From: a candidate division FCPU426 bacterium
GTDB taxonomy: Bacteria; Oederibacteriota; Muellerivitia; Muellerivitales; Muellerivitaceae
DNA: 64,000 bases
Assembly: GCA_963796105.1 (NCBI GenBank)
Contig: CAWCKJ010000004.1
Location: forward strand, 352,001-416,000
Direction: 5' to 3'
Every line of letters starts with the position of its first letter. The first letter of the stretch is position 1. Below the pieces are notes generated by a model. That model was not told the DNA's origin. It ran no database searches and worked only from the letters and a program-made list of their open reading frames with translations. Below, one piece after another: positions 8,035 through 37,900 of this stretch. The position numbers and the translations under genes are program-made.

Positions 8035-11000
8035 TTATGGCGTATCCAATTTCTTCACGGCGGTCCCTAATGGCAACCCCTTGACGTAAACAAAATCAAA
8101 AACCCGCAGGGGATCTCCCTGCTTTTCGACCATGACCGCGGCCATGTAGCGGTTGTCCCTCTCCGGATGGGGCTCGCGCGGCATATTCAAGAAAAGGCTT
8201 TTCACTTTTACCATATTCCCCGCGGGAAGCTCAAACGGCCCCAGGGTCGCCAGCTCATCCAGGTAATTTTTCGAGGTGTCTATCTGGTGGAGAACCACCC
8301 CTTTCAAGTCCTCGGGCGAATGGTTGCGGATTTCCACGCTTAACGGAACCGGCACCCCAACGGAAGCTTCCTTGGGGGCGGTGACAGTCACGTCAATGGG
8401 TAATAGCCCTTCGGCTTGTTGTAACGTCGTAAAGGCTTTTCCTCCCGCAATGGTCCATTCCATGGTGGTGTAAGGACCCCGGATTCCCCAAACCAACCGG
8501 TAAAGGTCGTGCCAAAACATTCCTAGATTGGCGTTCTCCGGAAACCAGTTCTGGAAAGTCTCGTTTTCGCGGTTATAAAGTTCCAGCGGGCCGGGAGGTT
8601 CAAGGGTTTTCTGGACCCAATTGAAGTCCACCATCTCTCCCATGGCGTACATGCCGTTTTCCCTGGATAAATAAACAGGCCAATGCCGTTTCATGGCCTC
8701 AATATGTTCTCTCGTCCCCTCGTAGAGCATGATATGGTTAAAGGCCACCCCAGCGTCAATGAACATGGCTGGATCTTGGCCGTGTTGATGTCCCATTTCC
8801 CATCCCAAGGTGAACGTGAACACCGGCTTGGTAACCTTTGCCTCATCCAAGATGCTTTTCAGGGCCAGCGACACCTTGTGGGCCCTCCACCACTCGAACA
8901 AAGCCACCACCTGGGGATTTTCCTTTAATTCCACGGTCCTGGCCAGCCAGTGAATCCGATCTTGCTTTGACATAGACCAAAAATCCATGGGGCCAGGGAC
9001 GTTCAAATCCCTGACGAACTCATCCACCATCTCATACCCGGCAAAACCTGTCCTGACATAATCCAAACCTATGATATCAACCAGGGGTTCCTGATCCATT
9101 TTCCTTAGGAAATCGATGATATCCTTGCGGCGTTTTTTATCATCCAGGGAGATGAACCTAGTCTGGATGACCTCGTCGCTGTCCGGATCGTATCCCAGCG
9201 AGAAGTCGTAAGGCGCTTGCTTCCAAGCGTCGCCTTCCACTTTAAAGGTGGTCATGTACCCAGCGAACTGCAGGCCTTTCGCGTGGGCGGCCCTCGCGTA
9301 ACGGCGGCCCGTTTCCATTTCGAGGCGGTTGTAAGGAAAATCCGCCTGCACGAAATGATCCCAAATGGAGGTTTGTCCCATCAAGTCGCAGTATAAATTT
9401 GCCCCCATGAATTTCGCCCAATCAATGGCGTTGGAGGTGCTGGAGGATCCGTTTCCATCCAAAGGCGGCACGGCGCCGTTTACCAATTGCTTCCCCCCCT
9501 CCATCGTAAGCGCGGCATAGCCGGGATAAAGCCCGTGGGGTTTCAAGTGCGCGATGGTAAACGCGGATTCAAAAGTCCGGGGAACCTTCCATTGCGGGGA
9601 AGTAATGATCACCTCGGCGATGTAAGTTCCCGCCTTGGGGTTGTAGGGAATCGGCCAATTGCCGAGAAGCTTCTTCCCCTCCTGATCCTTCCTTAAATAC
9701 AACTTGGACCTGCCATCCACCATGTTAACCGGCTCCCCGTCGCGGAACACCTCCACGGATGCGTGGATATCGGAGAAATAAGTCGAATCCTTTGGATTAA
9801 CCCTCACCTCAAAAGGCACCATTTCGTAGCGAAAAAAAGTGCGAGTGGGCATAACGGCGATGGCGTCTGGAATCATCTGGGAAACAGAGGGTGCTTGGAG
9901 GACGTTCTTGGCCCTGGAGGGGGAAAGGGTGGCCTTGGCCCAGTAGGCGCCAACACTTAATAAAAGAACAATTAAAACAGCCCAGCCGATCAGGGATCGC
10001 TCAACAAAAGCCTGGTAAATCCCTTTCCAGGATTCCCAACGCGGTGCCGGCCGCAGCAAGGGCAAAAACTCGGGGGAAGGCCATTCCAAATTCGGCTTCT
10101 GGGTGTTTTCAGGAACATCAACAATATCTTTCTCATGGCTCTCCTCATGGCCGATCCCAGCCCTGGAAAGTGGCGTTGAAACCCTCCCCGAAGCCAATGG
10201 GCTGGGGATCTCATCGGCCATTTCCGGATTGAGTTGAATGGCATTTTCCTCCTCCCATTCTTCCTGGAATGGGGTTTCAACCCATTCCGTTAGGACCCGT
10301 TTCGTTTCTGAATAGGCTTCTTCCAAATCCTTTGTTTTTTTCTCTGCCGGGAAAGAATGGGCCTTATCTATTGCTGGAGACTTCCTTGAAAAATAACTCT
10401 TGCGCCACTGGTTCATATTCCAAATCAAACCAACGATCGATCGAAACAGGAACGGGAATGATGAGAAAAACCATCGAACTGCTATCAGGGAATAACGGAA
10501 GAGGAAACTAAGACCCGTCAGGATTTTTTTAACCGCCCAGGGAATAAACGAAAAAAACGGCCAAATCCAATCCTTCCCTTTTCCCGAAAGCTTTTCCAGG
10601 ATCAAACCCACACGCGGCAAATATTTTCCAGCCTCCTTAATCACACTTTTAATATTGAGAACGGTGGGCTCGGTCTTTGGCAAGCGGAAAGGCTCCAGGT
10701 TTTTCGGGGATAAAGTGCTGATATCCCCAAGCGGGACTGATTTTTCCCGGGTGAGCCTCACCACCGTTTCCACGTGGTAGGTCTGGGGGAACATGTCCAG
10801 CGGCTGCGCCCAGTCCGCCCTGTAGCCGTGTTTGGTCAAAAGGGAAAGGTCCCGGGCCAGGGTGGAAGGGTCGCAGGAAACATAGACCAATCTTTCGGGA
10901 TGGAAAGCCGTCAAATGCGCCAGAAACTCCGGCAGGACTCCCTTGCGGGGAGGATCCATGATCACAGCGTCCAGTTGCGTCATTCCCTTATCCCGCAAGC

Positions 11001-12177
11001 CCGTCAGGACCCGGCCGACGTCGCCTTCCAGGAAATCCAGGTTGTCCCGCTGATTCAATTGCGCGTTGAATTTCGCGTCCTCGACCGCGGGAGCTGATTC
11101 TTCGATGCCGACCACGTAGTCCGCTTTGTTGGATACAGCCAGGGCTAGGGTCCCAATCCCGCAATAGAGGTCCAGGAGCATCTCCCATTTCTTCTTATGC
11201 TCCGGGTCGCCGAGCGCCTCCCTGACCACGGTATGGAGGATATCCGCCTGGGGTGTGTTCACCTGGAGGAAGGACATCAGGGACACCCTCAGTCTGAGAT
11301 CGTCGATCACCTCGAAACAGTGGTCCCTTCCGGCCAAGAGGCGCGTCGTGGTCCCGAAAACGGAATTGGTCCGGGAGGGATTGATGTTTTGAAGCACGCC
11401 CACCAATCCCGGGACTTCCTCCAAAAGCTCCGCCGAGATCCTGGGGAGGATTCGGTCCAAGGTTTCTAAGATCAGGGCCGGCTTTTGAAGGCGCTCCTCG
11501 GGGGTTTCCGAGCGGGTGATGAAGGACAACAGCATTTCCCCTGTTTTTACCCCGTGCCGGACGGCCAAGTGCCTCAGGAAACCCGTGTGTTTCTTCTCCT
11601 GGTACGGCGTCAAACCTGAGCGGTCGATTTTCCTTAGGACTTTTTGGATCAAGTCGTTGACGGGATCCCCCTGGATGGGGCAGGTCTGGTAAGGAACGAG
11701 GTGATGGGAACGGGGTTCGTAAATTCCCGAGACAAAATGTCCTTCCCGCATCGAGAGAACCGGAAGGGCCTTGTTGCGGTAAGCGTAGGGGCTGGGCGAG
11801 GGTAGGCAGGGCTGAACCAGGACGTTTGAAAGGTGGCCGATTCTTTGGAAGGCGTCCACAACAAATTGGCGCTTGGCTTGGAGCTGACGGGAATATTGCA
11901 GGTGCTGCCATTGGCATCCCCCGCACTCCTCGAATACGGAACAGGCTGGAACCACGCGGTCCGGTGATCTTTTCAGGAAGTTAAGAATCTCCCCCGTGGC
12001 GTAATGATCCTTTACTTGGTTGATCTTTACGGCCACCCTCTCGCCGGGAAGGCCGCCCGGGACAAATACGGCAAAATCACGGTAACGCCCTACTGAATCC
12101 CCCCCGAAGGCGAGGGAGTGGATGTCGATCTCGATGATGTCGCCGTGGTGTACGGGTTTGACGAATTTGGTTTCCAT
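8035..12177 (-). CDS. rlmD: 23S rRNA m5U methyltransferase (RlmD/RumA family) fused to a TM helix and a C-terminal glycoside-hydrolase-like region
   Basis: N-terminal ~477 aa has TRAM, CSVFEECGGCQWQH, SFLQVN, DLYCGIG, DPPRKG, YVSC and DMFPQTYHVE. The frame continues ~900 aa with a TM segment (LIGWAVLIVLLLSVGAYW) and DIIGLDYVR. Confidence 0.85.
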   Translation of the reverse strand: METKFVKPVHHGDIIEIDIHSLAFGGDSVGRYRDFAVFVPGGLPGERVAVKINQVKDHYATGEILNFLKRSPDRVVPACSVFEECGGCQWQHLQYSRQLQAKRQFVVDAFQRIGHLSNVLVQPCLPSPSPYAYRNKALPVLSMREGHFVSGIYEPRSHHLVPYQTCPIQGDPVNDLIQKVLRKIDRSGLTPYQEKKHTGFLRHLAVRHGVKTGEMLLSFITRSETPEERLQKPALILETLDRILPRISAELLEEVPGLVGVLQNINPSRTNSVFGTTTRLLAGRDHCFEVIDDLRLRVSLMSFLQVNTPQADILHTVVREALGDPEHKKKWEMLLDLYCGIGTLALAVSNKADYVVGIEESAPAVEDAKFNAQLNQRDNLDFLEGDVGRVLTGLRDKGMTQLDAVIMDPPRKGVLPEFLAHLTAFHPERLVYVSCDPSTLARDLSLLTKHGYRADWAQPLDMFPQTYHVETVVRLTREKSVPLGDISTLSPKNLEPFRLPKTEPTVLNIKSVIKEAGKYLPRVGLILEKLSGKGKDWIWPFFSFIPWAVKKILTGLSFLFRYSLIAVRWFFSSFPFLFRSIVGLIWNMNQWRKSYFSRKSPAIDKAHSFPAEKKTKDLEEAYSETKRVLTEWVETPFQEEWEEENAIQLNPEMADEIPSPLASGRVSTPLSRAGIGHEESHEKDIVDVPENTQKPNLEWPSPEFLPLLRPAPRWESWKGIYQAFVERSLIGWAVLIVLLLSVGAYWAKATLSPSRAKNVLQAPSVSQMIPDAIAVMPTRTFFRYEMVPFEVRVNPKDSTYFSDIHASVEVFRDGEPVNMVDGRSKLYLRKDQEGKKLLGNWPIPYNPKAGTYIAEVIITSPQWKVPRTFESAFTIAHLKPHGLYPGYAALTMEGGKQLVNGAVPPLDGNGSSSTSNAIDWAKFMGANLYCDLMGQTSIWDHFVQADFPYNRLEMETGRRYARAAHAKGLQFAGYMTTFKVEGDAWKQAPYDFSLGYDPDSDEVIQTRFISLDDKKRRKDIIDFLRKMDQEPLVDIIGLDYVRTGFAGYEMVDEFVRDLNVPGPMDFWSMSKQDRIHWLARTVELKENPQVVALFEWWRAHKVSLALKSILDEAKVTKPVFTFTLGWEMGHQHGQDPAMFIDAGVAFNHIMLYEGTREHIEAMKRHWPVYLSRENGMYAMGEMVDFNWVQKTLEPPGPLELYNRENETFQNWFPENANLGMFWHDLYRLVWGIRGPYTTMEWTIAGGKAFTTLQQAEGLLPIDVTVTAPKEASVGVPVPLSVEIRNHSPEDLKGVVLHQIDTSKNYLDELATLGPFELPAGNMVKVKSLFLNMPREPHPERDNRYMAAVMVEKQGDPLRVFDFVYVKGLPLGTAVKKLDTP

Positions 12178-14982: not shown

Positions 14983-17553
14983 TTAACGAACGACGAGCAC
15001 TTTGAATTTCGTGTTCTTGGTCGATTGGTCGGCGTAGTGGACTTTGATTCGAACAATATAAAGCCCGGACGCGGCGTGGGAAGGCATCCAGGCGTGACGG
15101 TTTGTGTTGGCGAACTCAAGATGGGCCGTTAATTCCCCCGCGACCGTGTAAATCCACCATTCACTGCTGAGGGGCTGTTTGTCGAAAAACAGCTGGATAG
15201 CCTGTCCATTCGCGGAAACGGTCGGGCCCAGAAGCAATCCATGGCTCGATGGGTTGTATAAAGGCGTGGGAGTAATCGTGGGGGTGTTCGTGATCGTGGG
15301 GGGGAGAGTAATGGTTGGAGTGAGTGTGATAGTCGGCGTGTTCGTGATCGTAAAGGTCGGGGTGGGCGATCCCCGGTAATTCATGACCAATCCCCAATCC
15401 CAAGCGGTGGAAGGCACGGTGACGTTCATGGCACCGCCCGAGGCGGTCGCGGTGCCGGTTGAGGAAAGGGCGCCGGTTTGGGTGTTGTACCAATGGGTGT
15501 TCCAGGTGCCGTTCGTGCCGACTCCGATAAATTGAACCGTTCCAGTGAGGGCCGGGGGGGCGCCGTTGGCAAGGACATACGCGTAATTGTAGTTGCGGTT
15601 GGTCACCCAGGCCGCGATGGTTTGGGCCGACTGGAGGGCGTAGGTTTTCAACCCAGCCACACAGCCCCCAAAGACATAAGTGGTGTCCATCCAATCCGTC
15701 CCCGTGTCGCTCACGAAAAGGGTCGCTGGCCCGGCTGGCACCGGCACCGAATAGGTGGTGTTGGAGACGGCCTGGCTGTTCAAGACCTGGGTCCCATTGA
15801 GGGTGATGTTGAGAATCGGCACCCCGGGCGTGGGGCAGATGTTGCCCACCTGCACCCGGAAATTACCCGCCGCCGGGTAATTACAGATGAAAGTCGGGGG
15901 GTTGACCAAGGTGGGGTGGTAGGAGCCGTAAAGCTCGGAGGACAGACTCCCCACGCCGGGGGACAAGGTGCCGTTGGAATTTACGGTGAAGCGGTTGGCG
16001 GCGGCGACGGTTCCCCACCCCAGGGACCCCGTGACGGTGAGGTCGGCGTAGGAAGAAGCCGTGACCAGGGGTTGGTTGAAGGTGAACCCCGAATGGACGA
16101 AATCCAGCAAGGAAGCGAAGGTGGAAAGCCCCTTGTAGTTGTAATAAAGGTTTTGCGGGTCGATGTAGTCGTCCCACCACCACATGGCCCCGCTCCCGTC
16201 AGACTCGCCTAGCAGGTCTCCCCACATGACGTTATGAAACTCGATTCCGCCGGGGTCCATGGACACAGGGGCGGAGGAGGAACTGACCCCGAACTCCCCC
16301 ACGTGCACGGGTTTGGAGGGGTAACTGCCCCGGTAGTTCTCGACGGTCCCGTGGATGCCGTCTTCCATGGCGGGGGAGGAATTATAAAAGTGTATCTGGG
16401 TGTAATCGATCAAGGAGGAGTTCCAAACATTCGGGTCGAACTGGCTTTCGGCGAAACTGGTGGTGACCAGGTGCAGGCTGTCGAGCGACTTGACGTAAGA
16501 GGCCATGTTTTCAAGCCAGGCGGCCACATCGGCTTGCACCGTGACGCTGGAGGTGTAATTGTCAGTCCACTCGATCTCATTGGCCAATTCCCAACACAGG
16601 GAAGGGTCATAGCCCCAGCGGGCCACGCAATAGCGCAGGTGCTGTTTCCAATAACTGATGGCGGTGGGGTTCGTGAAAAAATCCGTGGTGGTGGAACAGG
16701 GCCCCCCGTTGGTGCTGTTGTAGGGGCTTTGGGCCCAATTGGGATTGACGGTGGAGGAGACTGACCCGTGGTTCAAGAGGCACAGTTCCACCACGATGCC
16801 GTTGGTCCGGGCCTTTTCCAGGTCATAATCCAGCCGCCAGGCGTCGTACTGATAATAGGAGTAATTCCCCAGGCCCGGGGTGGAGTTTGGGTTCGTCCAC
16901 TCGATCTCGTGGTACCAGGGGCACATCCAATAACGGGCGAAATTTGCCCCCTGGGAGGACATCTTGGGAATCCACTGGTCGTAATCGAAGGTTCCCCCTC
17001 CGTAGTTGTCTTCATAGTCCCCCCAGCCCACGTCCTCCCCGATGGGAATGAATTGGGTGTTGTCGTCGTATTGGAAATAGCGTGGATCGGATGAAATCTT
17101 CGGAAAACCCTTGAGCGTGGAAGCGTTGCAATTGAAAGTTTGAGGGCCGTAGGTCCCGGTTCCCGACCCCGAATCCACCGCAGTCAGGTTATAGGTCCAG
17201 GTGCCGGTAGCGTTGGGGGAAAACCGTATCTTCCAGACGGGCGAACCGCTGGAGGTTAAAACCTCGGGCGGCCCCGAGCGGGTATAGGCCTGGTAATAAA
17301 ACCCATAGGCGGTGATGGCCTGAGAACCATTGGTGAAGACACCGTAAACGTTGATCTGGGAGGGGTTGTAAGGGTTGCCGTAGGTTGTCCCGGAAAGGGT
17401 AAAGGTCAGCTCAAATTTATCCAGGCGTTGGATGCTAGTGGAACTGGGGGTGACGCCGGTGAATACAGGCGAGGCCAGCGCTGGGTAAGTGAGGAAAGCC
17501 AGGTATGCAGTTAAGAGAGTCCGCGAAACAGAACGCACTAAAATCAAATTCAA
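14983..17553 (-). CDS. Secreted glycoside hydrolase (DUF5060-like N-terminus, GH5/clan-A-like barrel), T/P linker, C-terminal Ig/sorting-like domain
   Basis: NPYNP...GFY...WKIRFSP (DUF5060-like); RY.VARWG...WELANE (acid/base) and VGEFG (nucleophile); TPT repeats; IYTVAGEL...ASGLYIVRI. Confidence 0.8.
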   Translation of the reverse strand: MNLILVRSVSRTLLTAYLAFLTYPALASPVFTGVTPSSTSIQRLDKFELTFTLSGTTYGNPYNPSQINVYGVFTNGSQAITAYGFYYQAYTRSGPPEVLTSSGSPVWKIRFSPNATGTWTYNLTAVDSGSGTGTYGPQTFNCNASTLKGFPKISSDPRYFQYDDNTQFIPIGEDVGWGDYEDNYGGGTFDYDQWIPKMSSQGANFARYWMCPWYHEIEWTNPNSTPGLGNYSYYQYDAWRLDYDLEKARTNGIVVELCLLNHGSVSSTVNPNWAQSPYNSTNGGPCSTTTDFFTNPTAISYWKQHLRYCVARWGYDPSLCWELANEIEWTDNYTSSVTVQADVAAWLENMASYVKSLDSLHLVTTSFAESQFDPNVWNSSLIDYTQIHFYNSSPAMEDGIHGTVENYRGSYPSKPVHVGEFGVSSSSAPVSMDPGGIEFHNVMWGDLLGESDGSGAMWWWDDYIDPQNLYYNYKGLSTFASLLDFVHSGFTFNQPLVTASSYADLTVTGSLGWGTVAAANRFTVNSNGTLSPGVGSLSSELYGSYHPTLVNPPTFICNYPAAGNFRVQVGNICPTPGVPILNITLNGTQVLNSQAVSNTTYSVPVPAGPATLFVSDTGTDWMDTTYVFGGCVAGLKTYALQSAQTIAAWVTNRNYNYAYVLANGAPPALTGTVQFIGVGTNGTWNTHWYNTQTGALSSTGTATASGGAMNVTVPSTAWDWGLVMNYRGSPTPTFTITNTPTITLTPTITLPPTITNTPTITPTPLYNPSSHGLLLGPTVSANGQAIQLFFDKQPLSSEWWIYTVAGELTAHLEFANTNRHAWMPSHAASGLYIVRIKVHYADQSTKNTKFKVLVVR

Positions 17554-17740
17554 ATCCTTTTAAACCAAGGTTTCCCAGCCAACCGCATCCTATTATGCAC
17601 TAATCATTTCAATGTGGGGCTGGCGTTAATGGGGTTTTGTTCTTCTATGGGGGATAAAAGATGAAAGCGATATTATTTGTCGGATATTCGCATGAAGCGT
17701 CTTGATGGAACTTCGAGGAAGAGATGAGGAGAAACCTGGA

Positions 17741-18253
17741 TTAGTTGAACCTTTGGATGTAACCCAGTTGGAAAACGGGGACCACTTGGTTCGTCAGCAA
17801 GACGGCGTCAAGTTCCGCCGCGAGGCCTCCCCAATTGACGTCCATGCCGGCGCCCCCATAATAAAAACCCAGGCCTTTGATCACCGAACCGAGGGAAATA
17901 ATCGTGCTGATAGCCCCTCCCAAATTCAGGTAGCCACCCACCAGGGATAGATTGGCGGAAAAACTTTTCGTGTCAGTTAATTTTTTTGACAGGTCGAGTT
18001 GTACGCTTTCCATCCCCGCCGACGAAAACCCGTTCAGCTTGAAACCATAATCCTTCAAATAATATCCCCCCACCAGGTTGAAGAATGGCGGGATATCCCC
18101 GACCGTCAGTCCCAAAACGGGGTATTCCCCTGAATAAGCTGATGGGTTCGAATCAGCGGCTCCGGCCGCAAGGGGAAAAAGGAGTGTCAAACAAAAGCCC
18201 ATCGAAAACACCAAAGCCTGGCAAAACCGATAGATCATCTTAAATTTCCTCAT
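17741..18253 (-). CDS. Hypothetical exported small beta-barrel-like protein
   Basis: 170 aa, GGAGG SD, signal peptide, alternating beta pattern, ends FQLGYIQRFN. Confidence 0.55.
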   Translation of the reverse strand: MRKFKMIYRFCQALVFSMGFCLTLLFPLAAGAADSNPSAYSGEYPVLGLTVGDIPPFFNLVGGYYLKDYGFKLNGFSSAGMESVQLDLSKKLTDTKSFSANLSLVGGYLNLGGAISTIISLGSVIKGLGFYYGGAGMDVNWGGLAAELDAVLLTNQVVPVFQLGYIQRFN

Positions 18254-18478
18254 ATCCCAACCTCCACTCGCATAGGTACAGCGATTTATATTTCAGCCGA
18301 TCTGGAAAAAGTGTCCACCCATCCCGGACTATCCCACAACCCGGTTATTTTATCTTTAAGGGTTGTTCGGCCATTCCTGTTTCGGGGGTCTTTTTGGTCG
18401 GCCGTTTTCCCGCAGGGGTGAAAGTGTTTGAGGAAATTAAGAAAAACTTGAACCTGAAGCTGGCCCATTTCGACCGCC

Positions 18479-18775
18479 ATTCCAACAGGAACCCCAGAAT
18501 CTACTACTAGGTTCCCCGGACTTGCTACTAGGAACCGTCAAAACTACTACTAGGAATCCGGAACCTGCTACTAGCTACCGCCGGATCTGCTACTAGGAAC
18601 GCCGAAACCTGCTACTAGGTACCCCGGAACCTGCGGGCAGGGCTCCCGACACCTGCGGGCAGGGTTCTCGGCACCTGCAGGCAGGGCTCATGGACCTGCG
18701 GGCAGGGTTACCGGCACCTGCGGGCAGGACTCCCGGAAAGTTCTCGGGTTCCCGGCTAGTTCTCGGGTTCCTGGC
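18479..18775. repeat. 21/22-bp-phased array A: 6 x CTGCTACTAGG-type then 5 x CTGCGGGCAGG-type cores, then 2 x AGTTCTCGGGTTCC
   Basis: Cores start at 18501, 18522, 18544, 18565, 18587, 18609, 18631, 18653, 18675, 18696, 18718, with variable 10-11-nt linkers. Confidence 0.9.
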
Positions 18776-18859
18776 CAGTTTTCTTGGTAAACCATTGGCT
18801 TCTGTTCTTCATCTATATCAAATGCTCCAAGCTCAAACGCCGCTGTTCAGCGGCGGTGA

Positions 18860-19288
18860 TTATTTCCCCTTCACGCGGACCACCAGGACTGGGATGGAGG
18901 TTTTGTGCCGAACTTCCGCGATGGTGCTCCCGTGGAACAGGTCGCCGAGGAAACGGTGCCCGTGTCCCGCCATGGCGATGAGGTCGAACTTCCCGCCCTC
19001 GGCCGTCTTGAGGATTTCCTGCGGGGGATTGCCCAGCGCCAGCTCCACCGTCACGAAGAGTCCCTGTGCCCTCAAGTCCCCGGCTTTTTTCTCCAGGTAT
19101 TCCCTGTCCACGACCATTTCCTCCGATTCGGCGAGCTTGAGGGTGTCGAAATTGCGCGCGACCCAGCCGTCGGCCACGTGCAGGAGGCGCAGTTCCGAGC
19201 CGTATTTTTTAGCCAATTCAACGGCGTGCGGAAGGATAGTCTCGTCCGCCGGGCCGTTCTCCAGCGCCACCAGGATTTTTTTGTACAT
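18860..19288 (-). CDS. Universal stress protein (UspA family)
   Basis: MYKKILVAL, DLIAMAGHGH...HGSTIAEV, IPVLVV. Confidence 0.92.
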   Translation of the reverse strand: MYKKILVALENGPADETILPHAVELAKKYGSELRLLHVADGWVARNFDTLKLAESEEMVVDREYLEKKAGDLRAQGLFVTVELALGNPPQEILKTAEGGKFDLIAMAGHGHRFLGDLFHGSTIAEVRHKTSIPVLVVRVKGK

Positions 19289-20788: not shown

Positions 20789-20909
20789 AAATCACCAAGA
20801 GCGGAATTTAAAATGGGCGGATTCGGCTTCCCTTGGAAGCTCACCGCAAGGCAATGAACCCGTTCGATAGTGCTTCGCACTCCTCAGGGCTGGGGGGATG
20901 GGTGAAGGC

Positions 20910-21413: not shown

Positions 21414-21621
21414 AGTTCGTTCCTTTCAAGTGAGGTTAACCGAAGACGCCCATTTTAAGCCAATTAAGGACAACCGGCATTAAATCCATCGAAAACCCAT
21501 CGAACTTGCGCAGGGCAGGCCCGAAACCGGCTGAATACCTGGCTAAAAGACAACTTAAAGCTATTCGCACCGCGTACCAGCCTTCGTTTTTTCCGATTAG
21601 TTTACCCATATTGAGTCCAAA

Positions 21622-26424: not shown

Positions 26425-26665
26425 GGAACAGCCTCCATTTTGGGGCGGGAAATAAAGCACGATAGGGACCTGCGACTTAAAACTTACCACTTTTTAAGCA
26501 AAAATGATAAATAACAAATATAGTTCTTGTCCGAATTTGCGGATGATTGTTCTTGAGGCCGGTACGTCCAGATCTTCTAAAAAATTATTATCCGACCAAA
26601 TGGAAAAGCAAATGATAAAAGCGGTATGGAATGGCTAAAGGACATAAAGTGATGAATTATCACTA

Positions 26666-26826
26666 CAGCAACTAGGTACCCCCAAACCTGCAACCAGGCA
26701 CCCTGGTTCTGCTACTAGGTACCGCCAATTCTTCTACTAGGTTCGCTTATGCCCACTGGGCCCACCGGCGTCCGCGGGCAGGGCCTACCGGACCTGCGGG
26801 CAGGGCTACCGACACCTGCGGGCAGG
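26666..26826. repeat. 21/22-bp-phased array B, left part (same two core types and order as array A)
   Basis: Cores at 26666, 26688, 26709, 26731 (CTACTAGG type, degenerate) and 26772, 26794, 26816 (CTGCGGGCAGG type). Confidence 0.85.
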
Positions 26827-26977
26827 ATTGCCGAAAATGTGGGCGTGTTATCCTCCCATGACGGTAGGTGACCACGTCCAGGCCGACGGTGGCTCCCGAC
26901 CTCATGAATACAGGGCCCCCAAACCGTGCCTACAGGGCTTCCGGCCCAGCTATACGGAACTGGGTCATCGGCTTACC

Positions 26978-27335
26978 GAATACTGGGTTGTACTGGGTTG
27001 GGGCTTCCAATACTGGGTTACGGGTTTTCCAAATACTGGGTTGTACTGGGTTGGGGCCTCCAATACTGGGTTGCGGGTTTTCCGAATACTGGGTTGTACT
27101 GGGTTGGGGCCTCCAATACTGGGTTGCGGGTTTTCCAAATACTGGGTTGTACTGGGTTGGGGCTTCCAATACTGGGTTGCGGGTTTTCCGAATACTGGGT
27201 TGTACTGGGTTGGGGCCTCCAATACTGGGTTGCGGGTTTTCCGAATACTGGGTTGTACTGGGTTGGGGCCTCCAATACTGGGTTGCGTGTTTCCAAATAC
27301 TAGGTTGTACTGGGTTGGGACCTCCAATACTGGGT
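26978..27335. repeat. 53-bp tandem repeat, about 6.8 copies, G-tract rich
   Basis: Unit RAATACTGGGTTGTACTGGGTTGGGGCYTCCAATACTGGGTTRCGGGTTTTCC at 26978, 27031, 27084, 27137, 27190, 27243 and 27295 (partial). Confidence 0.97.
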
Positions 27336-27453
27336 ACGGCGGAAAACCCGTCCACGTACGGCGGGAACCCGACCCCAGATGGCGGGAAACCCCGTCCCCT
27401 GCGGGCATGACCACCAGCGTCTGTGGGCAGGGCCACCAGTACCTGCGGGCAGG
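27335..27453. repeat. 21/22-bp-phased array B, right part
   Basis: Three GGCGG(G/A)AA(A/C)CC-type cores (~27338-27392), then CTG(C/T)GGGCA(G/T)G cores at 27399, 27421, 27443. Confidence 0.8.
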
Positions 27454-27522
27454 ACTTTCGGCCCATGGCCAATGAGCCTGGTTTTCGGCCATTTTCAAGG
27501 CCTCAATTTGCGGCCTGGAAAT

Positions 27523-28900: not shown

Positions 28901-31900
28901 TTATAGATTGAAGTGAATTTCCCCGCCGAAGGCCTGGGAATCGAAGTTGGTGCGGCCGAAGTCTCCCTGATAACGGATGGTGAAATTCAACCCGTTCTTC
29001 CACTGGAGGCCCAATCCGCCGCCCACCTGGAACCCGCTCTGGCCGATCTTGGAACCTAGCACCGTGAAGGGGCTCCCCCCGATGTTGGAAGTCACCTCTC
29101 CGCCCTGGTAGTCGAACTCATTCAACCAGGTCGCGGTCACCACCGGCAGGAAGTTGACATCCCGGCTGAGGGGAATATCGCCCGCAGCGCGGCCGCCCAA
29201 GTTGCTGGCAAAGGAATTATCACCCTGGTTCCCGTAACTCAAGTTGGAAGAGGACCCCGTTTCCTGGAACGCGTTCACATCCACATGCGTGTGCTGGATG
29301 GAACCCACGGGACCCAAGGTCCAATTTCCGGTTTGGGTCTGGTATCCCACGCCCAACTCGCCGGAATACATGCCCCCATTGGTGTTGCCCGCCGCTGTTC
29401 CGCCGAAGGCGATCCTCTGGCTGTCATAGGCGTCATAGCCCACCTCGCCTAAAAACTGGGCGAAGAAGCCTTCGGACTTGATCAAGCCGTAGAGGCCCAA
29501 TTGGCCTCCGTTGATGGCCAAGTGGCTTCCGCCGGTGGCGGTGATATTCGCGCTCTGGTTGCCCGCCAGAAGGCCGACCGCCAGGTCCCTGCTGAACTGG
29601 TAATCCACGCCGGCCGCGGTCAAGCCGCCGTAGGTGGCCTTGTAGCCCTCGCCGTTCCCGTCGCCGGTCACGTTCAGGTTTCCACCGTCGCCGCTGATGA
29701 ATCCGCCCCAGCGCTCCTCATCCTTGATTCGCGAGCTGTGGCGCGCCATTTCCAATTCGACTTCAGCAGGCAAGGTGCCGGCGAACATCTTGGAACTATC
29801 GATGCCCGCCAAATTGTTTCCACCGCCGAACCCGCCCTGGCCCGCCAGGAAGCTCGACAACCTGCTTCCCAAGGCCCCGGCCTGGAGTTCCGCCAAGCGG
29901 AAGTTCACCGTGTAAAGGGCCGCCATATTGGAGGGTGAGATCAGATCGTAAGCGTGCGGATATTGTCCCGCCGTCAAGGTCCCTAATTCCGCCATGAGCC
30001 CAGTCACCGCCTGGCTTCCGTAGAGGCCGTCCAACTCATCCGCCACGGAAATCTGGTTGTGCGTCTTGGAAAGGTCCGTAAAGGAAGCCGGCATGGCCTC
30101 CAGCACTACCTCGTGGGCCAAGTAAACCGGATATAACCTTAATCCCGTGAAGGACTCATCGATGGTTGAGAACTGGCCCGTCAACACTCCGCCCGTTCCC
30201 GCTACCGTGAAGCCCTCGCCGATGGTGGGCGTAAACCCGTCATAAGAGGTGACTTGGAGCGTTCCCGCCATGGCCGCGGTCCCTCCGATGACCAGATGGT
30301 CGTATTGCGTCAGGAGAGTTCCGCCCAACCCGAGGCTTAACGCCGCGGTGGCTGACTGGCTGTAATTCTTGCCCACCAGGATCAAGTGGTTGATCCCGTC
30401 TGTGGAAAGAGTACCGCCGTTCAGGGCCAAGCTTCCTGTACCCAGCGCGGAGCTGGAAGCGATCACCAAATTCCCGTCTTCCATGTCCGTCCCGCCGCTG
30501 TAGTTGTCCGAGCCGGAAAGAGTCAAGGTGCCCGTGCCCAGCTTGGTCAGGGAGCCTCCCATTCCGCCGGAGAGTCCTCCGTCCAGGATACTTCCGGAAA
30601 GGGCCATATCGGTGTTATTGATGCCCAATCCCAGGTTTTCCGCGCCCAGGTAGATGTTTCCGGCCCCGTTGATGGAGCCCACCGTGACGCCTGTTGAGGA
30701 GCCGCTGATGTCAAACACGCTGCTGACAGCCTGGTTGAACACCGCGTTGCCGCCCAAGGCCGTTCCGGAGAAGGCCACCAGGGAGCCGCTATTGCCGGTG
30801 ATTGTGGCAGAGGCCGCCGTCGAATCTTTCTCGAAGAGAAGGTCCCCGCTGTTGTTGATATTGGCGTACGCCGCGGAGGCGATTGCCGTTGACGTCGCGG
30901 TTTTGGCCTCGACGATTTGGTTTCCAAACTGGACCAACCCGCCGTCCGCGTTCGAGATGGCCGCTTGATCAGCGCTGGAGGCGTTGAAGAAGTAAAGCGA
31001 GGCGCCTCCCTCGTTGGTGATCGAGGCGCTGCCCGCGTCGGAATTGCCGTTGAACACCACCACCCCGTTGTTATCGTTCACGATGGTGGCGCTTCCCGCG
31101 TTGGCGTTGTTATTGAAGCCGACGGAGCCCTGGTTTTGGATGTCGGATTTGCCCGCAGTGGAGTCGTCGTTGAACTCCAGGGTGCCGCCCGACAAGCCGT
31201 TGGAATCGTTGTTAATGGTCGCGCTTCCCGCCGTTGCGTTGCCGGAGAACTGGATGTAACCGTTCCCGTCGGCAAGGTTGTTGATCACGGAATTTTGCGC
31301 CGAGGCACTCCCGTAGAAATAGAGCCGCCCGCCGTTGTTGTTGATCGTGGCGGTGCCCGCCTGGGCGCTGTCCTTGAAATCAACTTCCCCGTTCATGGTG
31401 TTGTCGAGCAGGGCGTTCCCGGCCGTCGAGTTGTCCTGGAACAAGGTGTATCCGTTGTTCTCGATGGTCAACCCGCCCGCGTTCTTGAAGTCGAAGAAAT
31501 CCAGCGACCCCAAACTGCCAACCGTCACCCAGTTGGAGGTCCCGAGGGTCCCGTTGGTGTCGACATCCAGCCAGCCGCTGGTGACAGTCGTTCCTCCGGT
31601 GTAATTGTTCGTCCCCCGCAAGATGAGGCCTGATTCCGTATCACCGACCTTCTCCAAACCGGAGGTGCCGTTGATGGAACCGCTGAAATCACCCATCTGC
31701 ACTTGCAGGGTGGATGGGCCGCCGAACAGCGTGACCGAACCCAGGCCGTACAAGCCGCCCAAGTAAACCGAGGTGCTGCCGGTCACGGAATCCGAACCGT
31801 CCATGCCAGCCTGCACATTGAAGTAGGAATTCGAGTCAATCAGGTCTAAGGACCCCATGGATACGGACGCGTTTCCGGCCGTCCCGTCAGTACCCCAAAC

Positions 31901-34900
31901 CGATCCTCCGCCGCCGCTGCCGCCATTGCCAGCCAGTACGTTGATAGAGGAAGAGTTGTTCAAGGAAACCGATCCAGTCATCAAGGAGGCGTTCCCGCCG
32001 TTTCCTCCGTTGCCGCCCATATCGGTCACATCACTCGTCAAGCCTTTGTCTGTATTCCTCACAGCGCCCGCTTCCAAGTTATAAGAACCCGAGTTCCCTC
32101 CGTCGCCGCCGTTGCCTGCCTGCACCAGCAGGAAACTGGAATCCATCGTCACCGCGCCGGTGGACAGGGAGGCGTTTCCGCCGCGGCCCCCGTTGCCGCC
32201 GTTGCCGTTGGTTCCATCAGCGCCCGTGCCTGGGGTATAGGTACCCGAGTCGCCCTCATCGGCGCTTCCGGCTGAGCCGGTGTATTCGTAGATATCCCCA
32301 ATCCCCTGGGATCCGCCCGAGCCGCCGGTTCCGCCGTTTCCGGCCACTACCGCGAGACTGGAGGAAGTGGTCAAGGCCACGGTTCCGGTCACAGTCAAGG
32401 CCGAGTTTCCGCCGTTTCCGCCGTTGCCCCCGTTGCCCCCGTTGCCGCCCATGGCGTTGCCGTCTTGGCCGTTCCCGCCGACGCCATAGTCCGCGTAACC
32501 GCCGTTACCGTCTCCGCTGTATCCCCAGCCGGCTGAGTTCGAGTTTCCGCCGTTGCCGCCGGTCCCTCCCGTCACGCTGACGGTCCCGGAATCAACCGTC
32601 AAGGAAGCCATGGTCACGGTCAGGTTCCCGCCGTTGCCGCCGTTCCCGCCGTTGCCGCTGTTTCCTCCGGTCCCGTTTCCGCCGGTCCCGTTGCCGCCAT
32701 AAGCCGTGTCACCCTCGTTATAGGCTTGGCCGCCGTTGCCCTCGCCGCCATAGCCGTCTCCGCCGTATCCGCCGTCTCCGCCATAGCCGCCGTTGCCGGC
32801 TGACAGTACCAGGGTTGAACCGTTGGAAAGGGCCGTGTTGCCCAAGACCCCGGTCAAGTCCCCGCCGTAGCCGCCGTTTCCACCGTTGCCGGCGTTTCCG
32901 CCGATTCCATTGCCGCCCACGGCGTTTCCGCCGTAATTGTTATCGGCGGAATTATAGGCATCGCCGCCTTGGGCGTAATCCCCGTCGCCCTCAGTGCCGT
33001 CATAACCGTAGCCGCCCTGCCCGCCGTTGCCGGAGGCAATCGTGATGTTCGAGGCCGAGGAGGTCACATCTCCCAAGCTGACAGTGACGCTTCCGCCGAT
33101 CCCGGCGTTCCCGCCGTTGCCGCCGTTGCCGCCGATTCCATTGCCGCCAACCGCGTTGCCGCCAACTGCGTTTCCGTCAAAGGTTTCATCGGCGGAACCC
33201 CCGTAAACTGAGGTTTCTCCGCCGTAGCCGCCGTAGCCTCCATCCGCGCCGTCGCCGCCATAACCAGCGGCCACATTGAGGGTGGAATTCCCGGACAAGG
33301 CGACGTCTCCAGCGGCCAGGCTCACGCTTCCGCCGTTGCCGCCGTTACCGCCATTGCCGCCATTTCCGCCGGCGCTGTTACCGCCAACGCCGTTACCACC
33401 CACGTTGAGGTACCCGCCAACATAGGCTTCGCCGCCGTCGGCCTCAGAGTCCCCGCCGTACATTCCTTCCCCGCTATAGCCTCCCGTTCCGCCATTGCCA
33501 GCCGTAAGGTTGACCTGGGAGGAGCCGGAGACATTGATGTTTCCCTGGTCGTCCAGGGTCAAGTTTCCGCCGTCCCCGCCGTTGCCGCCGTTGCCGCCGT
33601 TGCCGCCAATCACATTGCCGTTCGAGGCGTTCCCGCCGTAATTCTCAAGACCGTAATAGGCTTCTCCCGCGTCGGCATAGGACCCGTCAGCCCATCCGCT
33701 GTACTCAGTGGACTCCTCGTTTCCCCCGCTTCCGCCCTGGCCGCCGTTGCCAGCTGAGACCTGGAGAGTGGACTCACCCGTCAAACTTGTGTCGCCTTGA
33801 AGGGCCAAGCTGACGCTTCCGCCTTTTCCCGCGTTCCCGCCGTTGCCGCCGTTGCCTCCCGAGACATTGGCGCTTGTGGCGTTGCCGCCGTTATTTTGCA
33901 TGGAGTAGTCATCCGCCGTGGCTTCACCGCCATAATAACCACCATCGTCATAATAATAAGGTCCATAGGCGTAGTTGCCGTTACCAGCGTCTCCGCCGTT
34001 TCCGCCCTGGCCACCCAAGATTGAAAGATTCGAGGAAGCCAAGGTCACCGCGCCGGTGCTTCCGGTCACGCTCCCGCCGTTTCCGCCGTTCCCGCCGTTA
34101 CCGCCGTTGCCGCCGGTGATGTTTCCGCCGGTGGCGTTGCCCCCAATTCCGTTTCCAGGGTAATTGTCCCCATCCTCACTGATTCCGGTTCCATAATCCT
34201 CGTAGGGATCGTTGGCCCCATCGCTGTAAGCGGCGCCGCCGACACCCCCCGTGCCGCCTTGGCTTCCGCTTCCCGCCGAAAGGGTGACCACGTTACCAAG
34301 TGCCGTGATATTCCCGGTCGAGAGGGCCAAACTGCCTCCGTCGCCCCCGATTCCGCCGTTGCCGCCGTTACCGCCTATCGCGGAGCCAGCTGTCGCGTTT
34401 CCGCCCACGCCGTTTCCGCCGTTACCGTCATCGCCGTAACCGCCATATCCAGTGCCGCCGCCGGCCCAAGCGCCTTCGGCGTAGCCGCCGTCGCCGCCGT
34501 TGCCGCCGACACCGCCTTGTCCGGCTGTCACCGCGAAGGAGGCTCCGGATTGAAGTGTCAAGGAATTCATGGCCAAAGACACACTTCCGCCGTTTCCGCC
34601 ATTGCCTCCCTGTGCCCCGTCGCCTCCGATACCAGTTCCGCCCACGGCATTATCGCCGTAGCCGGTTTCGCCATCGTATCCCTCATCGCCGTAGCTGGTC
34701 CCATCCTGGTAGGCTTCCCCGCCGTAGCCGGACCCGCCGTCCCCGCCGTTGCCTCCGTTGCCGCCGTTCCCGCCTGCCAAGGATACGCTTGAGGAACTTC
34801 CCACATTGACATCACCTAATGACGCGGTCACCGCACCACCCGAGCCGCCGTTGGAGCCAACCGTTCCAGTTACGCCGACACCATCCCCGCCCTGCAATGA

Positions 34901-37900
34901 AATCTGCCACCCTTGAGGCAATCCATCTTCCTCGTAATCGTAGGAACTATAGCCATCCCCTTCACCGCCGGAATAACCGGAAGCGCCGGAATATCCCTGT
35001 CCACCGATGGCCACCAAGGAAGACTCGCTCGTCAGGGTCAAGGAACCGCTTGAAACCGATGCGTTCCCTCCGTTGCCGCCGTTTGCGTTTTCGCTGTAGC
35101 CGCCCCCTCCGCCGACCACGTAGATATTGCTGTTGTCCACCGAAACCGCGCCCGCAACAGACAAGGCCGAGTCGCCGCCGTTGCCGCCGTTGCCATAGGC
35201 ATAGTCGTACCCGCCCCAGCCCGCGATCACGTCCAGGTTGGAAGTCTCCGCGTTATTGGAAGTCAAGGTTAGGCTTCCCAGGGAAGCCATGGCGTTTCCG
35301 CCCGTGCCTTCGGTGTCGCCCGAATTTCCGAAGCCCGACTCGGCGCTTCCGGCGATCACATTGATCTCGCTCGAATCCACCGACACGGCGCCAGCAACCG
35401 TCAATGTCGCAGATCCGCCGTTGCCGCTGATCGCTGGGTCACTCCCGTCATAGGAATACCCGCCGTTGCCGCCGTACACGTTGAAAGTCGAGGTGTTATC
35501 GTTTGTATTATTCGAGGTCACAGTCAGGGTATTCATGGAAGCAGAAGCGTCACCGCCATTGCCCCCGTTGGAATAATTGGAGTAGCCGCCCTGTCCGCCG
35601 CCCACGCTGACGTTGCTGGAGTCCACCGACACAGCTCCCGCAACCATCAAGGTTGCCGCTCCGCCATTGCCGCCGTTGCCATCGCTGTAATCATCCCCGC
35701 CGTTACCGCCCACCACGTTAAGGTTGGAAGTCTCCGCGTTGTTGGAAGTTAACGTCAGGCTTCCCAGGGAAGCCGTGGCGTTTCCACCATTTCCCTCGGT
35801 GTCACCCGAATTTCCGAAGCCCGACTCGGCGCTTCCGGCGATCACATTGACTTCGCTGGAATCCACCGACACCGCGCCTGCCACCGTCAAAGTCGCTGAT
35901 CCGCCATTACCGCTGACCGCCGGGTCGCTCCCGTCATAGGAATACCCGCCGTTGCCAGCGTACACGTTGAAAGTCGAGGTGTTATCGTTTGAGTTATTGG
36001 ATGTCACAGTCAAGGTATTCATGGAAGCCGAGGCATCTCCTCCATTGCCGCCGTTGGAATAATCGGAGTAACCGCCTTGTCCGCCGCCCACGCTCACGTT
36101 GCTGGAGTCAACAGACACATCGCCAGCCACGGTTAAGGTCGCCGCGCCGCCATTGCCGCCGTTGCCATAGTAATAATCATCGCCGCCCGCGCCCCCGACC
36201 ACGTTAAAGGAGGAAGTGGTTCCCGGGTCATCAGAGGAATTGAACGAGTTTGAGGTCAATGCAAGGCTTCCCAGCGAAGCCGAGGCGTTCCCGCCAGCGC
36301 TTTCAGTTTGGTCTTCGTCGTAAGATCCATAACCATATCCAGCGTTGCCGCCGGTCACATTCACCGTGCTCGAGTCTACCGACACAGCTCCACCAGCCGA
36401 CAGGGTCGCCGAACCAGCGGTACCATCTAGGCCGTTGTCATACTCCCAATAGTTGCTTCCCGAGTTTCCGCCAATCACGTTGAGGCTGGAATAACCATTG
36501 TTGGACGTCACGGTCAAATCAGAACCGATGGACACATTCGCGTTCCCGCCGTTGCCGCCGTTGACATTGACGCCAAGAGCGCCGGTTCCACCCGTCACGT
36601 TCACCGAACTGGAATCAATTGACACGGCGTCAGAAACCGTCAAGGTTGCCGAGCCGCCAGATCCGGCCGTTCCTGTGTCAGACCAATTTCCATAATCCCA
36701 AGGATAGGCACTTTGGGCGCTTCCAGCCGCCACATCAAAGGTGGAGCCATCATTGACACTTAAATTTGTCCCAACGGAAACAGACGAGTTTCCGCCGTTA
36801 CCGCCATTGCCGTAATAATATGATGTTGTACCTGTTCCACCGCCCACGCTGACATTGCCGTTGTCCACGGACACAGCTCCGCCCGAGGTGAGATTCGCCG
36901 ATCCGCCATTTCCCGCGGTTCCGCTATAGGTTCCACCACCGGCCCCGCCCACCACTAACAAGTTGGAAGTGGAATAATTGCCGGTTACATTCAAGTCCGA
37001 CCCGACGGAAACAGAGGCGTCCCCGCCGTTCGCGGCGTAGGCATATTGGCTGTTACCGCCCGCCCCGCCATTGACGCTCAAATTGCTGGAATCCAATGAT
37101 ACCGCGCCAGAGGAAGAAAGCGCCGCATCTCCGCCGTTACCGCCGTTGCCATAAGAGTAATCGTTCCCACCGGCGCCGCCATTCACGCTTAAGTTTGCCG
37201 GGTTTCCAGTCGAATTCTGGTAATAATGATCTGAGGTCAAATCCAAACTTCCCGCGGAAACTGTTGCGTCCCCGCCGTTTCCTTCTGTGTTACCGCTATT
37301 GCCGATGCCAAACCCGGCGTCGCCGCCGGTGACGCTGACTTCGCTCGAGTCCACCGACACCGCTCCTGTCGAGGTCAAGGTCGCCGAACCGCCGGCGGGG
37401 TCATAACCATTTTGGGAAGATCCGCCATTGCCGCCATGCACATTGAATTTGGAAGTGTTTCCATTTGAGTTATCGGATGTGATCGACAAGCTGCCGACGG
37501 AAGCCGTGGCGTCCCCGCCGATTCCGCCGATAGAATAATTGCTGTAACCACCCGCGCCGCCGCCAACGCTGACGTCGCTGGAGTCCACCGACACCGCCCC
37601 TGCGACCAACAATGAGGCTGATCCGCCTTTGCCGCCATTGCCATCGCCATAATCATTACCCCCAGACCCACCCACGACGTTGAAGCTGGAAGTGGTTCCC
37701 GGATCTGTGCTTGAATTGTATGCGTTTGAAGTCAGAGTCAGGCTTCCCAGGGTCGCTGTAGCGTCGCCGCCCGCGCCCTGAGTCACGCTTGAGCTGGAGC
37801 CATCACCACTACCCCCATAACCGCCCGTCACGTTTACATTGGTGGAATCCACCGAAACAGCCCCGCCGACCGACAATGTCGCCGATCCGCCCGAGCCGCC

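Follow-up and report, generated by a model that had tools for sequence, protein, structure and literature searches.

The phased array at positions 18479..18775 of the window, the 64,000-nucleotide stretch analysed here (contig C4:352001-416000 of the source genome, G000), is best explained, in a reading that we hold with moderate confidence, as a non-coding, directional binding platform for a predicted membrane-anchored family of proteins with a ParB-type helix-turn-helix (HTH) domain, with block A and block B each likely to be bound by a different paralog. Because comparable arrays lie directly upstream of nearly every gene of this family (class N), the window array is likely a stray docking strip. 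The gene-linked arrays occur in nine genomes of one family, where each paralog goes with its own version of the conserved core of the unit, or head.

Units, phasing and dispersal of the array

The eleven units and the spacing of 21, 22, 21, 22, 22, 22, 22, 22, 21 and 22 bp given in a preliminary description of this DNA were reproduced exactly, with the heads of block A ending at 18511, 18532, 18554, 18575, 18597 and 18619 and those of block B at 18641, 18663, 18685, 18706 and 18728. Both kinds of head are one 12-mer, CCTGC-N4-AGG, whose middle changes from TACT in A to GGGC in B while the phase is kept. The reported switch from six A cores to five B cores therefore stands; a uniform core sequence does not, as the A head is exactly CTGCTACTAGG in two of six units (the others being CTACTACTAGG twice, TTGCTACTAGG and CTGCTACTAGC) and the B head is exact in four of five. 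Mean pairwise identity amounts to 0.84 for A heads (0.96 over their last 8 bases) and 0.97 for B heads, against 0.62 and 0.67 for the linkers of blocks A and B, all eleven of which are distinct, as had been noted. Two minus-strand genes flank the array, one for a universal stress protein (Usp) and one for a 170-aa hypothetical protein, and the features of the region are as follows.

17741..18253, minus strand: downstream gene, a 170-aa hypothetical protein of no Pfam or NCBIfam family; start codon uncertain
18478..18499, minus strand: worn twelfth unit, CCTGTTGGAATG on the minus strand, near an E-type head; it ends at 18489, in phase with block A
18500..18629, minus strand: block A, six units; the head, CCTAGTAGCAG on the minus strand, is that of the array directly upstream of G001 C45:76490 (locus L213)
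18630..18738, minus strand: block B, five units; head CCTGCCCGCAG on the minus strand, best fitting the L074 array (G000 C4:1196536) and its G001 ortholog, L217
18731..18780, minus strand: third block, 2.6 copies of a 19-bp GGAAC-type repeat
18860..19288, minus strand: upstream gene, universal stress protein (PF00582), following an Nramp transporter
26664..27455, minus strand: second mosaic of the window, with A-like units, B units, 53-bp TACTGGGTTG repeats (6.8 copies, 96% matches) and further B units

The second mosaic sits between an autotransporter gene and a Sel1-OmpA gene. Elsewhere in the window, a 26-nt inverted repeat (20808-20833 and 21433-21458, 81% complementary) surrounds a 167-aa ferritin-like gene, a frame at 8035-12177 fuses a TRAM and tRNA/rRNA U5-methyltransferase part (its first ~480 aa) to ~900 aa without a Pfam match, and a 4660-aa Gly/Asn-rich autotransporter-like frame at 28901-42883 contains long internal duplications.

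When the intergenic region was simulated 20,000 times with a first-order Markov model, chains of phased heads reached three at most, compared with the eleven observed. Stops interrupt all six frames across the array and, in the family at large, 22-bp steps exceed 21-bp ones, in agreement with the non-coding character first proposed and at odds with a decayed gene of 7-aa repeats, one of two refutations that the preliminary description had named. The other, a low-quality artefact, is countered by the recurrence of the same heads and block switches in G001, a sister species of the same genus whose separate assembly argues against an assembly artefact; among short pieces from small shares of four public DNA runs, none bridged the window array. 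An Rfam scan of the window and a scan of 18200-18950 for sigma-70-like promoters gave 0 matches each, no HTH remnant was found at 17500-19000, and RNA folding of the array revealed no stable hairpin (z -1.54 on the plus and -1.36 on the minus strand versus 100 shuffles). A 13-mer from the third block, GTTCTCGGGTTCC, has six copies in the genome, each no more than 800-900 bp away from a class N gene or head cluster.

The genome-wide motif scan and copy mapping that had been proposed as a check place the array in a dispersed family. The G000 assembly (16 contigs, 96.8% complete) holds 49 clusters of at least three heads, counted with 13 head motifs, on 8 contigs, and 32 of them contain at least two head types; CCTGCGGGCAGG occurs 42 times versus 1.2 expected and CTGCTACTAGG nine times versus 0.13. 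In 30 arrays with TGC-N3-YAGG heads (20 from G000 and 10 from ten regions of G001), 285 of 298 steps measure 21 or 22 bp when 17-27 bp are allowed, and the mean of 21.7 bp is consistent with the suggested two helical turns per unit. Among these arrays 22-bp steps outnumber 21-bp steps by 195 to 90 and 323 of 328 heads retain A at position 10 (A10), a conservation that is partly built in, since units were chained by a head score favouring conserved heads. Codon constraint was rejected on the step counts and the conservation of A10, and adenine-specific, DGR-like change of the linkers was not observed, variation affecting all four bases.

The dyad remarked upon in block B is borne out for that block, which is near-dyadic, and fails as a general design, for the array family is directional: its 11-12-bp heads read CC-N-(A/G/C)GCA(G/T) on the gene strand, and CCTGC-N4-AGG is on the non-coding strand in 26 of 30 clusters between co-directional genes (27 of 30 with head type J reoriented). 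Many arrays have a 43-bp, two-unit period. At G000:C12:89599-90415, 37 near-perfect copies (99%) of a 22-bp family unit form a recent expansion, and three other B arrays have one end module in common. No bracketing inverted repeats were found among the 25 longest of 304 pairs, nor any obvious regulon among the genes behind orphan arrays; an array within 1.5 kb upstream of homologs of the 170-aa gene is present in G000 only (1 of 15 loci).

A doublet pattern of the TGC-N3-YAGG heads has 66 matches in G000, 114 in G001 and one in a single other genome, and is absent from the remaining 58 of 61 genomes. Two B-doublet matches in viral contigs are not 22-bp arrays, and the search of viral contigs gave no relatives of the HTH domain. 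A GTDB-wide scan for A/A' doublets, from which genomes near the window's were possibly left out, returned four loci. Three of them (L067, L068 and L069, from Alphaproteobacteria, Prevotella and Bacteroidaceae) are 10-11-bp tandem triplets of A/A' heads, probably unrelated to the array family. The fourth, from Bathyarchaeota (L066:2390-2900), is an array phased at 21-23 bp whose units share the A head of the window, TTCCTAGTAGCAGG, before a second block with TGTTCC-N9-GGAACA; it lies upstream of an ABCE1-like gene and has no match to the HTH profile in 5 kb. The matches listed from a metagenome triplet scan (14 of 64 parts, 119 loci) are mostly unrelated simple repeats.

The array-linked protein family

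Among the genes beside the mosaics, clustering brought out a family of five members, four of which have an array upstream by count and the fifth by inspection. A profile built from the N-terminal domain of this family (31 rows, alignment A2) separates two classes: class N (E<1e-38), in which the protein begins with the HTH domain, and class P (E>1e-17), with ~100-130 extra N-terminal residues that match ParB_N. Within the phylum, class N turned up in 9 of 99 genomes, each of them from the window's family (9 of 31 family genomes). By one fixed periodicity score for 21/22/43-bp phasing, applied to 700 bp upstream, a phased array precedes 36 of the 38 class N genes whose flank reaches 250 bp, or 37 of 39 when L079 (143 bp of flank) is added. 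The same score is positive for 4 of 41 class P rows, many of them from the same genomes as class N genes, and for 12 of 599 G000 genes drawn at random. Of the two class N genes that score negative, L086 has a 53-bp array and L216 an array that an insertion has shifted 1.5 kb away; two of the class P positives are pieces of one frameshifted class N gene and another is an 84-aa fragment, which leaves L077 as the sole full-length class P row having an array. This locus (G000:C4:1322060-1323705) encodes a 250-aa ParB-like protein with a weak domain match, and the array upstream of it has multiple blocks. Arrays of class N mostly end 20-150 bp ahead of the start codon.

Sixty-one clusters at 50% identity score E<1e-30 with the domain profile; names were looked up for ten, of which six are nameless and four are called 'hypothetical protein'. 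G000 has six class N genes, four of which end before the C-terminal PH/PDZ part described below, and fifteen further regions around array matches or a fragment match contain no class N gene. Orphan ParB_N-HTH proteins of 300-900 aa without arrays, as at G000:C3:513318-516080 and many class P loci, reach up to about ten copies per genome, and several have membrane helices and the same PH-like/PDZ tail as class N. The array-linked class N family is apparently undescribed so far. Full-text literature searches, in which subscription papers are sparsely covered, returned nothing relevant on such a protein-array system, and the main text of a ParB-fold survey that is centred on the CTPase fold, and whose supplements may list class P, lacks the words 'transmembrane', 'PDZ' and 'repeats' (PMC12704722).

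Structure prediction suggests the nature of the domain. An AlphaFold model of the HTH region (pLDDT 84) has Noc, ParB, Spo0J and SopB as its top Foldseek rows (probability 0.9-1.0, E 0.05-1), and VIA-align matches it to the DNA-binding domain of ParB (Z 7.9, rmsd 11.5, 107 aligned), KorB (Z 7.8, rmsd 3.2, 102 aligned) and Spo0J (Z 7.3, rmsd 2.9, 93 aligned). These matches are middling, with Foldseek E above 0.001 and Z under 8, and a sequence search of the PDB with the domain profile gave nothing useful; the class N domain is thus predicted to have a ParB/Noc/KorB-type HTH fold. ParB_N (PF02195) has no match in L213 or in the five G000 paralogs scanned, whereas four of the five class P proteins tested match it at E<1e-4 (three over the cut-off) and the fifth at E 0.0014; the ParB_N-bearing relatives have a weak HTH_ParB score as well. 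A hydrophobic segment follows the domain in 35 of 39 class N proteins, and the C-terminal 270 residues (model pLDDT 87) combine a PH-like fold (Z 9.2, rmsd 3.4, 102 aligned) with a PDZ domain. The predicted layout is therefore HTH, linker, membrane helix, PH-like and PDZ, the last two parts being inferred to face outward.

With each class N paralog having its own head, heads can be compared with recognition helices. When helices are sorted by eye into four classes, these pair with four classes of head in all but three of the 39 genes, and two of the three have 43-bp arrays alternating two heads. Helix [SG][QHR][IL]T versus RGCA heads gives counts of 9/0/3/27, KSQV versus CGGA(A/G) 3/0/0/36, (R/K)ML versus ACCCAGT 3/0/0/36 and the MV/ML-S type versus GT(A/T)(A/G)AC 7/0/0/32, although Fisher values on these counts overstate the association because the helix classes were drawn on the same genes. 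In a partial Mantel test of head on helix given scaffold (37 genes, L086 and L250 being left out as they lacked aligned units), rho was 0.12-0.14 and p 0.005-0.009; a cruder version on 38 genes gave a weaker signal. The scaffold correlates with the head as highly as the helix or more so (rho 0.18-0.22), and a sliding scan for head correlation has no clear peak at the recognition helix, so that shared descent explains part of the pattern. More telling than this unsupervised test are two sister pairs of the scaffold tree, L240/L228 and L230/L284, within which helix and head change together, in each case matching unrelated paralogs. Moreover, a held-out gene, L285 (helix SNGMIAN), has its head as in L253 (STGMIAN), both being of the same genus. 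For ParB and Noc, a few residues in or near the HTH suffice to switch specificity, according to the part of the published account used here (PMC7383237).

Origin of the window array and rival readings

The window array itself is an orphan, without an adjacent class N gene. Its block A scores 0.80 against the profile of the L213 array and 0.44 against the next best, and block B scores best (0.65) against the L074 array, whose heads vary around CYGYCSRCAK, on a scale where low-information profiles reach 0.4-0.6 too. At L213 (G001 C45:76490), about 24 A units, split by an insertion, end ~50 bp before a class N gene; one B head stands at the far end, and the B-then-A order equals that of the minus strand of the window. 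The insertion sequence that splits these A units (L213:975-2329) has a GCAAATTT-type duplication at its ends. L213 (helix SDGRITI) groups with L074 (helix SDSQITD) and L217 in the tree (90/88). No gene was found directly behind a pure B array in G000 or G001, and the 96.8% complete G000 assembly contains no ortholog of the paralog with the A head, tblastn reaching at best 44% identity across the HTH part, so that the assignment of B rests on resemblance; none of the six G000 class N genes is found behind an A or pure B array. Judging from these sequence comparisons, blocks A and B are likely the sites of two sister paralogs.

In-phase exchange between arrays probably gave rise to the window array, whose locus is a synteny break with respect to G001. 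There, the Nramp and Usp genes stand together at another place without an array after them, and the ortholog of the 170-aa gene has a different array and a class N gene ending ~1.5 kb upstream. Cassettes move: in G001, the ortholog of cassette C4:1196536 and its array follow a gene whose G000 counterpart stands before a different cassette, C4:724398. Five G001 arrays occupy sites where G000 also has an array, four of them with other heads; distant loci share exact stretches of 20-37 bp with the window array, and block order varies between loci. Gene-less two-block arrays exist in other genera, in G023 (with A-like heads) and G011. The latter (L308:3297-3649, contig C69) has GGTAAACA heads and then GGCGGCAT heads, in a genome with only a fragment match to the class N profile. 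In-phase exchange and gene loss would explain the cassette moves, shared stretches, changes of block order and truncated paralogs, although no intermediates of such exchange were seen.

Between nearest-neighbour units, B units have 2 head versus 41 linker differences and A' units 6 versus 20; D units, with 4 versus 5, have no head protection. That gene-less B arrays keep their heads suggests continued binding, and could alternatively reflect head-biased conversion. The original proposal that conserved cores amid divergent linkers signal selection for protein binding is thus upheld as to head constraint and has gained a candidate family of binders, binding itself being what we infer. In the mechanism that we propose, one head would be bound per two helical turns, all on one DNA face, and a multi-subunit complex would assemble on the many fixed sites rather than through CTP-driven sliding. 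Where an array precedes the gene of its own protein, binding would control the promoter that follows the array and keep the locus attached to the inner membrane, and the PH-like/PDZ part outside would likely serve as a sensor. Array-plus-gene cassettes would be born, swap sites and decay fast, and in-phase recombination or conversion between the arrays of different paralogs would leave gene-less, block-switching arrays, whose orphan heads may stay constrained because related paralogs still bind.

Other readings give the dispersed arrays a different weight. They could have a selected function of their own, as a Noc-like map of chromosome-membrane anchors in which mixed blocks let several paralogs tether one locus: the excess of 49 clusters over six class N genes in G000, the persistence of sites between species while heads change, the protected heads of gene-less B arrays and the predicted membrane helix next to a Noc-like fold would all fit. 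Class N genes are however patchy (9 of 31 family genomes) and often truncated, and orphan arrays are far more numerous in the window's IS-rich genus than in other genera by the three patterns tested, which makes such a map unlikely. Quite unlikely, in our estimate, are arrays that serve as a recombination or insertion platform, like Neisseria NIME or REP/BIME mosaics, with the HTH genes as chance cargo. Mobile genes do lie near arrays, as a mosaic is within 900 bp of 10 of 29 genes labelled as IS21 helpers, 5 of 11 labelled IS3-type and 4 of 17 labelled, by their motifs, RAYT-like or Y1-transposase-like, and arrays border segments that vary between species, the window array itself being at a synteny break; yet a platform leaves unexplained the phased arrays, fixed in orientation and with a head that follows the helix, directly upstream of 37 of 39 class N genes, in contrast to ParB_N-type relatives in the same genomes, and the arrays form no stable hairpin (z -1.5 and -1.4).

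A neutral minisatellite shaped by slippage and gene conversion, with no protein partner, could account for the exact 20-37-bp stretches common to distant loci and for near-perfect recent expansions such as the 37 copies (99%) on C12, and is very unlikely given a period fixed at 21-22 bp across unrelated heads and genera, the contrast between heads and linkers and the linkage to genes, the upstream-array counts weakening it further. A decayed gene of 7-residue repeats or a structured RNA is largely refuted, and we would give either next to no credence. Several A-head variants are indeed synonymous in the frame reading L-L-L-G, but the ratio of 22-bp to 21-bp steps (195 to 90), the stops in all frames and the preservation of what would be a wobble base (A10, 323 of 328 heads) speak against coding, as the want of an Rfam match and folding no better than that of shuffles do against RNA. 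A wider form of the favoured binding-platform reading, which we put forward tentatively and regard as doubtful, is that of a new DNA-address system: an offshoot of ParB that traded its sliding clamp for phased arrays and gained an anchor and a sensor, with dozens of orthogonal pairs, and in which shuffled arrays would act as combinatorial membrane addresses.

Significance and comparison with known systems

A repeat family without explanation gains a candidate reader. If binding holds, some 40 ParB-fold domains, each with its own site, would constitute a natural series, a test bed for the divergence of ParB/Noc specificity that might also supply orthogonal DNA labels. The family and its relatives divide cleanly into proteins that keep the CTPase domain and have no array and those that lost it and have one, which makes it testable whether fixed arrays replace CTP-driven spreading, and also whether a transmembrane ParB tethers DNA. 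Membrane-integrated regulators of the ToxR/CadC type and RodZ have a cytoplasmic HTH, one membrane helix and an outer domain, a layout similar to that of class N with a different HTH fold; we know of no long phased arrays associated with them.

The initial comparison with iteron or parC arrays is not supported, as no rep or par gene is adjacent, about 50 copies are dispersed, and the array lies on a 1.6-Mb contig with a dnaA-like gene, its flanking proteins having no rep-like Pfam match. The stable unit hairpins of REP/BIME elements are likewise lacking (z -1.54, -1.36). In the parts of the accounts drawn on here, SopB-sopC of plasmid F also combines a ParB-type HTH with a tandem site array, which consists of 12 x 43 bp with 16-bp inverted repeats, is read by a CTPase-bearing ParB and stands beside parA on a plasmid (PMC3177203). 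The window's family has 11-12-bp directional heads every 21.7 bp, a predicted membrane helix and many paralogs, and is chromosomal; the linked protein shares the ParB-type HTH by predicted fold, with middling scores, but class N begins with the HTH and has no ParB_N CTPase, only block B is near-dyadic in place of a 16-bp palindrome, and neither parA nor parB adjoins the window array. Noc of Bacillus subtilis, by the portions of its description used, resembles class N in being a ParB paralog of changed specificity with dispersed chromosomal sites and membrane attachment, and differs in needing CTP, spreading from a 16-bp NBS and reaching the membrane via an amphipathic helix (PMC8429893, PMC7383237). 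Class N has many dispersed sites as well (49 clusters on 8 contigs in G000), yet these are pre-arrayed, the CTPase domain is missing, an internal hydrophobic segment (35 of 39), predicted to be transmembrane, and outer PH-like and PDZ parts replace the amphipathic helix, and up to ~9 specificities coexist per genome. With no CTPase domain in the linked proteins, no 16-bp palindrome and no parA or rep gene beside it, the window array falls outside both the SopB-sopC and the Noc-NBS systems.

Two repeat families resemble the arrays in distribution, as far as the cited portions of the reports describe them. NIME dRS3/RS elements are also lineage-specific intergenic mosaics at syntenic sites, with variable content and an attraction for IS elements; they are built of 20-bp dRS3 inverted repeats and 50-150-bp RS spacers, without helical phase or an adjacent cognate HTH gene (PMC1797815), whereas the units here are contiguous and 21-22 bp long instead of inverted repeats alternating with spacers. 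The BrickBuilt MITE of Porphyromonas gingivalis likewise has intergenic tandem units of ~22-23 bp at many loci, but as one unit within a conserved leader and tail with inverted ends (PMC4596501), in contrast to the many heads and free linkers of the present arrays, for which no common ends were found. A parallel to the mode of binding proposed for class N is BldC of Streptomyces, a soluble 68-aa protein with a MerR-like fold and 9-bp sites, which, in the part of the work consulted, binds direct repeats, in variable number, directionally and head to tail (PMC5859096); class N proteins probably assemble on their arrays in a similar head-to-tail manner.
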